Positions 37,941-40,263 of a stretch of DNA of 64,000 nt are shown here, piece after piece (positions within the stretch are counted from its first letter, which is position 1; each line of letters starts with the position of its first letter). Location of the stretch: IMG/VR virus record IMGVR_UViG_3300043395_004688, one strand, 5' to 3'. Source of the stretch: a virus. Lineage: Duplodnaviria; Caudoviricetes. The translations under genes and the position numbers were made by a program. The notes beneath the pieces are model-generated. The model was not told the DNA's origin. It worked only from the letters and a program-made list of their open reading frames with translations, and made no database searches.

Positions 37941-37966
37941 AGATACATAGTTTGAAGGAGCCACAA

Positions 37967-39163
37967 ATGTCTAGAATGCCCGCCCGCGATAAGCTTATTA
38001 AGAGCCGTGTTGCAATGTTGCTGAAGTATCCGTTCTGGGGGCCTTTGGCAGCTCGGCTCAAGCTTGAAGAAGTTGATTGGTGCAAGACCATTGCCACTGA
38101 CGGCCGCAAGTTTTACTATAACAAAGAGTTTGTCGAGAAGCTCAGCGACGGCGAAATGATTTTTGGTTTTGGCCACGAGCTTGGACACATTATTTTTGAT
38201 CACATGGTCCGCCGAGGAGACCGTGAACCTCAAATTTGGAACATGGCCGGTGACTATGTTATCAATAACATGCTGGTCCGTGAAGGTGTTGGCACACCAA
38301 TCACCACTGTACCTATTCTAGTTGATCGCAAGTATGAAGGCAAGACTGCCGACGAAGTTTATGACGACTTGATGGCCAATGCCACCGTTATTAAGATGAC
38401 GCTGGATGACCACCTTGATGCTGATGGCAGTGGTGACGGTGACAGCGACAGTGACGGCGAAGGCAACGGCAAGCCCAAGTTCAAGAAGCTTACCGAAGAA
38501 GAGCGCAAGGCTCTGCGTGACGAGTGGCGCGAAGCTGTTATCCAAGCCGCAAAGAATGCTGGCGCAGGTAATACGCCGGCCGCAATTCAGCGCCTAGTTA
38601 AGGATATTACTGCGCCTGTTATGGATCTGCGTGATCTGTTGCGTATTCAGTTTAGCGGCTCTGTTAAGAGTGACTACACCTGGATGCGTCCTAACCGCAA
38701 AGGTTGGCATACTGGTGCAGTTCTTCCGGGTCAGTTGCCTGGCGAGGAACTGGACATTGTAGTGGCACTTGATGCTTCAGGTTCCATTGGTGAAGACATG
38801 CTGATGGACTTTTTGGGTATGGTACAGGGTTCGCTGGATCAATTTACCAGCTACAAGGTTCGTGTTGTTACCTTTGACACTACTGTTTACAACGAAGACG
38901 AGTTCACTGCGGAAGATGGTCGTAGCATGGGCGAATACGAAGTTACCGGTGGCGGTGGTACAAGCTTTGAATGTGTGTGGCAGTGGATGAAGGACAATGA
39001 AATCCAACCGCACCAATTGGTCATGTTCACAGACGGATATCCGTTTGGTTCGTGGGGCGATCCTGACTACTGCGACACGCTGTTTGTGGTTCATGGTAGC
39101 AAGGACATCACTGCTCCGTTTGGTATCACTGCTAACTATGTGCCTGCCAATCGCAGGCATTAA
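37967..39163 (+). CDS. Metallopeptidase-like (HExxH) plus VWA-domain protein (DUF2201-type)
   Basis: IATDG, GHELGH, WNMAGDYVIN, acidic DGDSD linker, MIDAS DASGS, GGGTSF, FTDG. Confidence 0.88.
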   Translation: MSRMPARDKLIKSRVAMLLKYPFWGPLAARLKLEEVDWCKTIATDGRKFYYNKEFVEKLSDGEMIFGFGHELGHIIFDHMVRRGDREPQIWNMAGDYVINNMLVREGVGTPITTVPILVDRKYEGKTADEVYDDLMANATVIKMTLDDHLDADGSGDGDSDSDGEGNGKPKFKKLTEEERKALRDEWREAVIQAAKNAGAGNTPAAIQRLVKDITAPVMDLRDLLRIQFSGSVKSDYTWMRPNRKGWHTGAVLPGQLPGEELDIVVALDASGSIGEDMLMDFLGMVQGSLDQFTSYKVRVVTFDTTVYNEDEFTAEDGRSMGEYEVTGGGGTSFECVWQWMKDNEIQPHQLVMFTDGYPFGSWGDPDYCDTLFVVHGSKDITAPFGITANYVPANRRH

Positions 39164-39176
39164 ACCAGAAGGACGT

Positions 39177-39387
39177 TCAGCTTAATCAGCTGATACTGTG
39201 ACCCGCAGGATGAGAAGTGGTGTGATAACCACGGGTGGTTCCAGTCTAACCTAACTGGCGCTGGCGATGCGAGAATCCTCCCTGGTTGGGAAGCGGGTGG
39301 AAGGCATGCGTGATGGTGTTGGGAGTAACCTAGCGCCTGATGTGCTACAATTACCGCCGCAGGGAGGAAGCACTTAGTTCGCTAAGT
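39177..39387 (+). ncRNA. Candidate structured non-coding RNA containing a C/D-type kink-turn; family unknown
   Basis: Four local hairpins, a 9-bp long-range stem tcctccctg/cagggagga, nested helices, GUGAUG/CUGA k-turn geometry and a terminal UUCG hairpin; folded by hand only. Confidence 0.65.
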
Positions 39388-39405
39388 AAGGTAGAGTACC
39401 TTACT
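39381..39405 (+). promoter_or_regulatory. Late-type promoter GCTAAGTA overlapping a 9-bp hairpin that abuts ATG 39406
   Basis: agtaaggta (39385-39393)-gag-taccttact (39397-39405)-ATG. Confidence 0.6.
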
Positions 39406-40263
39406 ATGATAGAACTAGAATACGCTGAGGTAACCTGGTTTTTAAATGGTTACTGCAAATTCCAATGCTCCTACTGCCCATCACTCTTTAAAAGTGGTGA
39501 GTTGAGCTTTTCAGTTGACCAGTATCTATCTGTCATTGAAAAATTGCAAAGCACAAGATACCAACACCACCCAAAAATATATTGGAAGCTAGGCGGCGGT
39601 GAACCTTTACATTATCCGCATCTGAGTACATTGTTAAAAAAAATAAAAGAACGACCATCATTTGTTAGACTTGATACCAGTGGTGACGATACTTGGTTTT
39701 CTTTGTACAGCGTTTTAAATTTCATTGACAAGGTAAAACTTACATACCATCCCTGGCAAAATGATGATGTGTTTGGCTTTGCACTTGAGCAATGCCAAGA
39801 AAAAAATATAGGGGTTTCAATTGTTATTCCTTTAACGCCCGGAAAGATTTACGAAGCCAAAGAAAAAGCACAGCACTATAAAGACCTAGGATATGTGTGC
39901 AGTGAGCAAATACTCTACGAAGAAGACGGTCGATTATATCAAGGATATAGCCAAGTAGATGAGAATAGAATTTATGGTCGCCCAGACGATTATGTTAGTG
40001 TTCCAGTGGTTCCAGTGTATACAGACCTAAGTGTACCTAATCAAGCAGATCCTGTTTACACGGGAAAGCCATGCTATGCAGGAGTAGACTGGTTGACTAT
40101 TAATCCTCGCGGCTTTGCATCATATAGTCAATGCGGTGGCAGAAGCGAACACTACAATGTATTTGATCCACAATGGCAACCACCTAGCAGTCATTTTGCT
40201 TGTACCGTAAACCAATGTAGAAACGAACAAGATCGTAGAAAAATTAGAATTGTTACCGAGTAG
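39406..40263 (+). CDS. Radical SAM protein with a Cys-containing C-terminal (twitch-like) segment
   Basis: CKFQCSYC, GGGEP, LDTSG, C-terminal CYAG..SQC...CTVNQC. Confidence 0.88.
   Translation: MIELEYAEVTWFLNGYCKFQCSYCPSLFKSGELSFSVDQYLSVIEKLQSTRYQHHPKIYWKLGGGEPLHYPHLSTLLKKIKERPSFVRLDTSGDDTWFSLYSVLNFIDKVKLTYHPWQNDDVFGFALEQCQEKNIGVSIVIPLTPGKIYEAKEKAQHYKDLGYVCSEQILYEEDGRLYQGYSQVDENRIYGRPDDYVSVPVVPVYTDLSVPNQADPVYTGKPCYAGVDWLTINPRGFASYSQCGGRSEHYNVFDPQWQPPSSHFACTVNQCRNEQDRRKIRIVTE

Follow-up and report, generated by a model that had tools for sequence, protein, structure and literature searches.

The window analysed here is a 64,000-nt stretch of DNA from a tailed phage (Duplodnaviria; Caudoviricetes), corresponding to the minus strand of the 177.7-kb IMG/VR record IMGVR_UViG_3300043395_004688 (G000 below; CheckV completeness 53%). 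Within it, a 242-nt intergenic gap bounded by a VWA-like gene on the 5′ side and a radical SAM gene on the 3′ side is occupied by a conserved, structured RNA that begins 7 nt past the stop codon of the VWA gene. A reading made from the sequence alone had marked this gap as a candidate novel non-coding RNA (ncRNA) with a C/D-type kink-turn (k-turn), either a trans-acting phage RNA or a cis switch for the radical SAM gene. The locus is arranged as follows.

37952..39163, + strand: upstream gene, DUF2201 metallopeptidase-like and VWA-like protein (Pfam)
39170..39376, + strand: whole conserved RNA, ~205 nt (nhmmer and covariance-model matches, alignments; ends set by flanking tRNAs elsewhere)
39406..40263, + strand: downstream gene, divergent radical SAM protein, ATG 39406 (Pfam, homologue alignment)

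An RNA family of huge freshwater phages

Related loci were gathered by searches seeded with both flanking proteins, VWA-like and radical SAM; the collected IMG/VR and comparison loci carry L-numbers below. A ~190-nt homologue of the gap was found by blastn and nhmmer in 14 of the flank-protein loci (9 distinct sequences). Furthermore, a 21-nt pattern taken from the invariant core matches at least 120 IMG/VR loci, on contigs of up to 525 kb, and among the matches listed nhmmer identified 119 full-length copies, 85 of them distinct. Structural counts given below refer to 86 aligned distinct sequences and context counts to 87 distinct loci, both drawn from the matches listed for this pattern (at least 120). 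The covariance-model (CM) match in the window spans 39170–39381.

The carriers are T4-like freshwater phages of huge size, up to 525 kb, that usually have one copy each. Each of four near-complete genomes of 320–353 kb has a single copy, and a 525-kb record (G001) with two tRNA arrays has two. The two copies of G001 (G001:C1:119575-119794 and 424193-424400) are diverged and lie in separate tRNA arrays that resemble each other in gene order; they represent either a true duplication or an assembly fusing two related phages. The window's phage itself has a T4-type family B DNA polymerase, and its nearest cultured relatives, Sinorhizobium phage Phosso and Agrobacterium phage Atu_ph07 (470–490 kb), share only 46–47% amino-acid identity with it.

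Among 50,697 GenBank phage records, megablast, blastn and tblastn found no match to the region, to the RNA or to the radical SAM protein, and a search with the model CM R1 returned no homologue in Phosso, Atu_ph07, E. coli phage A4 or T4. An exact scan for the core pattern over 185,579 prokaryote genomes gave a single match, on a 1.9-kb contig, probably phage, of a metagenome-assembled genome. Rfam 15 in gathering mode gave 0 matches over the whole 64-kb window, including to GOLLD, ROOL, RNase P, 6S, SRP, T-box and riboswitch models; in E-value mode on 39100–39480 the sole match was to sR18, at chance level (E = 5.6). ARAGORN found neither a tRNA nor a transfer-messenger RNA (tmRNA) in the window. 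The proposal of a novel structured ncRNA between the VWA and radical SAM genes, for which the sequence-only reading had named an Rfam comparison and covariation among homologues as checks, is therefore borne out: no family reaches its gathering score, the RNA is neither tRNA nor tmRNA, and the 86 distinct sequences covary strongly.

No description of the family was found in the literature, a comparison that does not extend to the 8,495 unnamed IMG/VR candidates catalogued by Fremin et al. 2023 (PMC10690425). We regard the RNA family as new in kind; orphan stable RNAs in phage tRNA clusters are, as a phenomenon, old.

Homologue covariation and the fold

Folding of the window sequence alone is only modestly better than that of shuffled sequences (z = −2.27 on the + strand and −1.39 on the − strand), and the decisive evidence for the fold therefore comes from the homologues. 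Mutual information across the alignment places the top-scoring pairs inside the proposed helices, with 96–100% pairable cells. A formal test was made on a covariance-model alignment of 73 distinct sequences. Paired cells reached 98.6% as observed, against 83.5% after shuffling and 30–53% with slid partners, and the covariation score was 0.426, against 0.154 for shuffled alignments (0 of 500 reached the observed value) and 0.03–0.07 for slid partners. The helices covary, and the longest invariant runs are unpaired joiners. The 5′ domain comprises the following elements.

39173..39176, + strand: invariant 5′ ACGU (alignment; 1–4 nt past a tRNA 3′ end in 45 loci)
39177..39193, + strand: H1, 5-bp hairpin with 7-nt loop UUAAUCA (5 of 5 pairs changed on both sides)
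39185..39188, + strand: AUCA of the H1 loop, kissing the H3 loop UGAU at 39223–39226 (covariation)
39196..39208, + strand: H2, 5-bp hairpin with invariant ACC in the loop, 39201–39203 (covariation)
39209..39217, + strand: J2/3, unpaired GAUGAGAAG (longest invariant joiner)
39218..39231, + strand: H3, 4-bp hairpin with loop GUGAUA (double changes in 3 of 4 pairs)
39232..39240, + strand: J3/4, invariant GGGUGGU (invariance), putative pseudoknot partner of the H2 and H4 ACC loops
39241..39258, + strand: H4, 5-bp hairpin, loop with invariant (A)ACC (double changes in 4 of 5 pairs)
39259..39271, + strand: H5, 3-bp hairpin with 7-nt loop (covariation)

Four of these hairpins had been folded by hand from the sequence, and all four are present with compensatory changes in 73–86 distinct homologues, the third being placed at 39218–39231; the fifth, covarying hairpin H5 (39259–39271) had been missed. 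Within H2, pair 39196/39208 is C-G in 51 sequences and G-C in 35, and 39199/39205 alternates between U.G and U-A. Changes from U.G to U-A fit the + strand only. The H5 pair 39261/39269 is C-G in 78 members and U-A in eight. A kissing interaction between the loops of H1 and H3 ties the five-hairpin domain together, as shown by pair 39185/39226, which is G-C in 54 sequences, A-U in 28 and G-U in four, and thus pairable in 100%.

The segments joining the hairpins behave differently from the helices. Within J2/3, AUGAGAAG (39210–39217) is invariant in 86 of 86 distinct sequences, and the joiner GAUGAGAAG, flanked by GGGUGGU and UAAUUACC, is among the invariant single-stranded segments. A lone tertiary covariation connects the base after H3 with the H4 loop (39232/39248; C/A in 77 sequences, A/U in six), a change that spans loci with three different H4 stem sequences. 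We take it as support for probable pseudoknots between the GGGUGGU joiner and the ACC loops of H2 and H4.

The 3′ part of the RNA is built on a long arm that carries the k-turn.

39276..39284, + strand: P6 5′ strand, pairing with 39360–39368, perfect 9 bp in the window (covariation)
39293..39296, + strand: P7 5′ strand, pairing with 39354–39357 (covariation)
39297..39302, + strand: near-invariant internal loop GUGGAA, facing ACAAUUA at 39347–39353 (alignment)
39303..39308, + strand: P8, canonical (C) stem of the k-turn, pairing with 39341–39346 (double changes in 5 of 6 pairs)
39309..39315, + strand: k-turn bulged strand, CGU bulge then GAUG, box C-like GUGAUG (sequence geometry)
39316..39336, + strand: hypervariable hairpin on the non-canonical side of the k-turn (alignment; deleted or with up to ~40 extra nt in relatives)
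39337..39340, + strand: k-turn non-bulged strand CUGA, box D-like (sequence geometry)
39360..39368, + strand: P6 3′ strand, pairing with 39276–39284 (covariation)
39369..39376, + strand: 3′ tail with invariant AGC (alignment; tRNA 5′ end 2–10 nt on in 22–28 loci)
39372..39405, + strand: two local hairpins outside the RNA family, UUCG at 39372–39387 and 9-bp at 39385–39405 (none in homologues)

Much of this arm had been drawn correctly from the letters. The 9-bp stem 39276–39284/39360–39368 has a family equivalent that covaries, with double changes in five of six pairs, and the helix 39303–39308/39341–39346 covaries as well. The helix placed between them at 39296–39302/39351–39358 was in the wrong register; covariation instead backs 39293–39296/39354–39357, where pair 39294/39356 is C-G in 69 sequences, U-A in 11 and A-U in six, and it also supports an extra 2-bp step at 39287–39288/39358–39359. 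Compensatory changes occur in 12 of 21 pairs when the 3′ domain is folded alone and, this folding and the formal test taken together, P8 covaries at 3–5 pairs. RNAalifold also proposed a local hairpin within the P6 region and a GGUGGU/ACCNCC helix spanning a long range; neither shows compensatory changes, they clash with the covarying P6 and P7, and both were rejected.

The k-turn follows the geometry originally described, with a bulge of C39309-G39310-U39311 followed by G39312.A39340, A39313.G39339, U39314.U39338 and G39315-C39337. A stem, a 3-nt bulge, the tandem G.A/A.G and a non-canonical stem can all be traced, and a kink-turn is accordingly the motif that the sequence predicts. The tandem is kept in 62 of the 86 members; in ten it is turned into G-C/A-U, and the bases concerned must therefore face each other. 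Although its length and sequence are hypervariable, the hairpin at 39315–39337 stays paired. The k-turn is lost in 24 of the 86 members and is thus dispensable in about a quarter of the family. Since the arm is variable and sometimes lost, and no L7Ae is present (see below), it would seem to be a peripheral, dispensable appendage, either architectural or for protein docking.

The terminal UUCG hairpin at 39372–39387, which had been taken as the end of the RNA, does exist in the window; however, no homologue has it, and the family ends near 39376. Even the 96%-identical locus L035 has a different hairpin where the window has the pair at 39372–39405. These local hairpins may set the 3′ end or affect translation of the radical SAM gene, in the window's phage only.

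Position among tRNA genes

tRNA genes flank the RNA in 80 of the 87 distinct loci, mostly in dense arrays (median 13 tRNAs per locus and maximum 30, within ≤15 kb), and all 1168 neighbouring tRNAs lie on the strand of the RNA. In the 45 loci in which a tRNA 3′ end lies 1–4 nt ahead of the invariant ACGU, that slot is taken by nine isoacceptors, and no distance between 5 and 37 nt occurs. On the other side, a tRNA 5′ end lies 2–10 nt past the invariant AGC tail in 22–28 loci. Gaps of ≤10 nt are common between the tRNAs themselves (40% of 1088), so that tight packing alone explains the junction. The position of the RNA within the arrays and the identity of the adjoining tRNAs vary among loci, and the RNA persists outside arrays in the window's phage and six other loci.

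Phages bearing the RNA also encode a permuted tmRNA. As this is a separate gene in the same phages, the RNA constitutes a third kind of stable RNA there. A search for duplexes between the RNA and the tmRNA yielded meaningless full-length duplexes.

Outside the window, the phage has a terminal tRNA array (Thr, Val, Ala, Leu, Glu and Gly; G000:C1:43-2305) and a permuted, two-piece-type tmRNA gene (G000:C1:14419-14776) with the tag ANDNYYSEDLRLAA, whose style we take to resemble that of alphaproteobacterial tags. The tRNA array and tmRNA lie ~128 kb from the RNA gene, which has therefore moved out of the array in this lineage.

Two features of the surrounding DNA are also recorded. In L202, L162, L154, L143, L141, L135 and L107, a conserved AT-rich inverted repeat, ATACAGT...ACTGTAT, followed by TTTATAAAAG, is found 45 nt upstream of the RNA; it occurs where no tRNA abuts the RNA. 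Together the repeat and TTTATAAAAG could form a terminator-like or late-promoter-like signal, although the spacing to ACGU looks too short for a promoter of the full RNA. A spacer of ~235 nt separates the RNA from the next tRNA in L088 (1430-1670) and in the same slot in L106, L124, L092 and L091. It opens with an identical ~20 nt in these and other loci. In L088 its far end carries a promoter-like pair, TTGACA...TATAAA, and a further small element may lie within it.

Protein neighbours and coding potential

For the radical SAM gene, the listed open reading frame (ORF) starts at ATG 39340; its first 22 codons overlap the RNA and are probably untranslated. Homologues align from residue 1 of the protein beginning at ATG 39406, and we therefore regard this as the true start. 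The gene adjoins the RNA in six of the 87 distinct loci. In L002, L003, L004, L009 and L015 the RNA lies directly downstream of it, and in L055 and L056 the gene is found ~3.9 kb upstream of the RNA. A related 285-kb phage has the VWA and radical SAM genes ~75 nt apart, with no RNA copy found by blastn or nhmmer. At L006:2878-3072, in a related phage, a degenerate copy (35.9 bits), in which only the H3–H4 core is recognisable, overlaps the radical SAM start from upstream. It suggests that the displaced copy is decaying there and that the displaced position is evolutionarily unstable.

In other phages that bear the family, the tRNA array harbours the gene of a second, different radical SAM protein (L088:1741-2997; 418 aa, CX3CX2C, Pfam E = 6e-10). 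Radical SAM genes thus recur among these tRNAs and may encode RNA-modifying enzymes. No protein neighbour is constant across the 87 loci, the commonest family being present in 15 of them; that cluster includes weak malonyl-CoA-decarboxylase-like, RNA polymerase omega-like, phosphoesterase and HNH proteins. Fourteen of the tRNA-array loci share a small ORF that encodes an RNA polymerase omega/Rpb6 domain (L187:1898-2272; Pfam E = 2e-6).

An L7Ae gene (PF01248) is absent from G000 and from five relatives that are 92–100% complete, the search controls being detected, and Ro60 (TROVE) and RtcB are likewise absent from the five near-complete genomes. A Y-RNA-like or C/D ribonucleoprotein reading of the RNA is therefore unlikely.

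That the gap might instead hold a small protein gene deserved consideration because two ORFs are present in the window, one of 36 codons at 39267–39377, the conservation of which had been named as a potential objection to an ncRNA, and one of 40 codons on the minus strand. The 36-codon ORF is not conserved: 18 of 86 members stop after two codons, the start codon is lost in eight, and the frame stays open for anything from 2 to 43 codons over the 86 homologues. Moreover, indels are not multiples of three and substitutions are compensatory for base pairs. We consider the coding alternative refuted.

Occurrence in RNA libraries

About twenty metatranscriptomes from freshwater, river and aquaculture samples contain conserved 31-mers of the RNA. 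In four freshwater or river runs, contigs in all four cover the RNA and pile up on 39181–39359; one metatranscriptome contig of 84 nt is an exact match to the window. The same four runs gave no contig on the radical SAM gene and few on the VWA gene. The metatranscriptomes show presence in RNA libraries, which is not proof of a discrete transcript.

Comparison with known RNAs

Phage T4 offers a precedent in rnaC and rnaD, two small stable RNAs of unknown function. Both are encoded within the T4 tRNA cluster, on the same strand as the tRNAs, and mature together with them. rnaD starts 1 nt past tRNA-Arg, and rnaC 6 nt past rnaD. The window's phage shares with T4 a T4-type DNA polymerase, and members of the present family likewise sit in tRNA clusters, on the same strand and butted to tRNAs, the window copy being outside the array. 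Homology to rnaC or rnaD was not detected, either with the covariance model on the whole T4 genome (E up to 1) or by blastn. Moreover, the T4 RNAs are 119 and 139 nt long compared with ~205 nt here, no k-turn was noticed in them, and rnaC ends in a tRNA-like T-arm and acceptor. All that is shared is a short motif, GAACGUUC then GGAUA, which may be chance. In rnaC (species 1 RNA; L207:2909-3047) it takes the form GGAACGUUCGGAUAU, resembling the 5′ GAACGUUC...GGAUAC of the family minus the H1 hairpin, again possibly by chance.

The description of the k-turn as C/D-type stands for the motif only. As in the box C/D k-turn RNAs (archaeal sR18, the U4 5′ stem-loop), GUGAUG and CUGA form a canonical k-turn. 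Unlike a box C/D guide sRNA, however, the RNA has no C′/D′ pair, its boxes enclose only the 21-nt hypervariable hairpin, and it has no guide, the stretch 5′ of CUGA being the unconserved 3′ strand of that hairpin. With the sR18 model, whose gathering score is 45, the RNA reaches 11 bits, and this on another stretch (39188–39233). Among the C/D partner proteins, L7Ae is absent in the six phage genomes; Nop5 and fibrillarin were not searched for.

GOLLD (RF01998) and ROOL (RF03087) are complex, pseudoknotted phage and prophage RNAs of unknown function, often found beside tRNAs (PMC12286853). They are 3–4 times larger than the present RNA, which gave no match to either in Rfam at any threshold. 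The k-turn riboswitches (SAM-I, lysine, c-di-GMP-II) and T-box stem I similarly place a k-turn bend in a compact fold with loop–loop or pseudoknot contacts, and the GGGUGG and ACCGCC motifs of the family recall T-box sequence. By contrast, the RNA resides in tRNA arrays and lacks a conserved downstream gene, an expression platform and Rfam similarity.

HDV-like 'theta' ribozymes are small and lie directly 3′ of phage tRNAs, the 3′ ends of which they reportedly free. The present RNA takes the same place behind a phage tRNA 3′ end; it is, however, ~4 times larger, lacks the nested double-pseudoknot topology and matches no HDV family. Likenesses noted by eye to CsrA sites, SRP, RNase P CR-I/CR-V, the GTPase centre, the 16S 530-loop and T-boxes are short and either unconserved or located in paired regions, and were discarded.

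Discussion

The tRNA-array context of the family and the rarity of its adjacency to radical SAM genes lead us to conclude that it is very probably a stand-alone stable RNA acting in trans. Placement among tRNAs and near a tmRNA indicates a role in tRNA or translation biology; that its target is the tRNA or translation machinery is a more tentative proposition, and one we would not press. Taken as a whole, the reading that we favour on balance is of a stable, structured RNA of ~205 nt that is matured with tRNAs and acts in trans through a core directed at tRNA or translation.

Under this reading, the RNA would be transcribed within a polycistronic tRNA precursor, from which its 5′ end would be released when the tRNA ahead of it undergoes 3′-end processing, and its 3′ side when RNase P cuts at the 5′ end of the next tRNA, a maturation with tRNAs like that of T4 rnaC and rnaD. 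In the window's lineage, where the gene would have moved to the end of a MoxR-AAA/VWA operon, the RNA would be made by read-through, and local hairpins would replace the downstream tRNA. The invariant joiners may make up a core, for binding or for catalysis, through which the RNA would act on a conserved part of the tRNA or translation apparatus of host or phage.

Several considerations weigh against this account. A promoter scan found no sigma-70-like site ahead of the RNA in the window, so that expression there rests on read-through. A search for candidate protein partners gave none, L7Ae, Ro60 and RtcB being absent from the five near-complete genomes. Function in trans is deduced from context only, and the pseudoknots between the ACC loops and GGGUGGU have no covariation support because the bases involved are invariant. 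Finally, the metatranscriptome runs were picked for containing the sequence of the RNA, and DNA carry-over into them is possible.

Other explanations draw on the same observations. The tight junction, with ACGU 1–4 nt past a tRNA in 45 loci and then no gaps of 5–37 nt, would suit a self-processing ribozyme, one that would cut itself close to or exactly at the 5′ end, and perhaps at the 3′ end too, and so release both the 3′ end of the abutting tRNA and itself. Extremely conserved unpaired joiners around a core that is probably pseudoknotted are likewise typical of catalytic RNAs, and the 5′ sequence is kept even where no tRNA precedes it. Close spacing is, however, also common between the tRNAs themselves, the 5′ segment has no covarying or complementary partner of the kind needed for a P1-type helix, no Rfam ribozyme class matches up to E 10, the HDV-like/theta and hatchet folds are not seen, and 205 nt far exceeds the known small self-cleavers. 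We regard this as improbable. The strand bias, together with a position inside arrays in 80 of 87 loci, might equally be expected of a cis element of the tRNA-array transcript, serving antitermination, folding and stability or processing with no free RNA. Yet array position and adjoining tRNAs vary, the RNA persists beyond arrays in the window's phage and six other loci, its complexity and single-stranded invariance surpass known cis elements of that kind, and RNA libraries repeatedly contain short contigs restricted to it; such an element is distinctly improbable.

It is tempting to speculate that the RNA binds tRNA 3′ ends in trans by NCCA pairing, with the ACC loops as competing mimics, and so serves as a sensor or sponge for uncharged tRNA. 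GGGUGGU, GGGUGGA and the ACC of two hairpin loops are invariant, UGGU and UGGA are similar to UGGN in the T-box bulge and to GGU in the RNase P L15 loop, and the gene lives among tRNAs; T-box stem I, too, contains a k-turn. Nevertheless, the idea rests on 4-nt complementarities, the second GGGUGG is partly paired in P7, which is backed by covariation, and neither Rfam T-box similarity nor an expression platform is present, making it a long shot. Of the two possibilities raised by the sequence-only reading, a trans-acting phage RNA fits the evidence and a switch for the radical SAM gene does not. In the window the RNA does lie 30 nt ahead of the start codon, with a 9-bp hairpin abutting the ATG, as a riboswitch or leader might. 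However, the gene is adjacent in only six of 87 loci, and in L002, L003, L004, L009 and L015 the RNA is downstream of it; no expression platform is conserved, the 39372–39405 hairpins being absent even from 96%-identical L035; and the related 285-kb phage retains the VWA and radical SAM genes with no copy of the RNA found by blastn or nhmmer. A leader function is thus very hard to sustain.

Large, complex RNAs with invariant cores are rare and, once understood, have usually proved to be ribozymes, riboswitches or ribonucleoprotein cores. It is a tantalizing prospect, if on present evidence an unlikely one, that the stand-alone RNA favoured here may be a new class of RNA machine specific to huge phages, whose invariant, pseudoknotted core would be catalytic or tRNA-directed, whether an array-processing ribozyme or a device for capturing tRNA 3′ ends or a translation factor. 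At 205 nt and with a k-turn, the RNA is a tractable target for structure determination, and its k-turn arm and covarying kissing loops could serve RNA nanotechnology. The family also provides a fresh handle on a 50-year-old puzzle, that of the stable RNAs in T4-type tRNA clusters. Were such a machine real, it would add a third translation-linked kind of phage RNA beside tRNAs and tmRNA and, in an area of intense phage–host conflict, would let the phage manage its own 13–30-member tRNA set or take over host translation.

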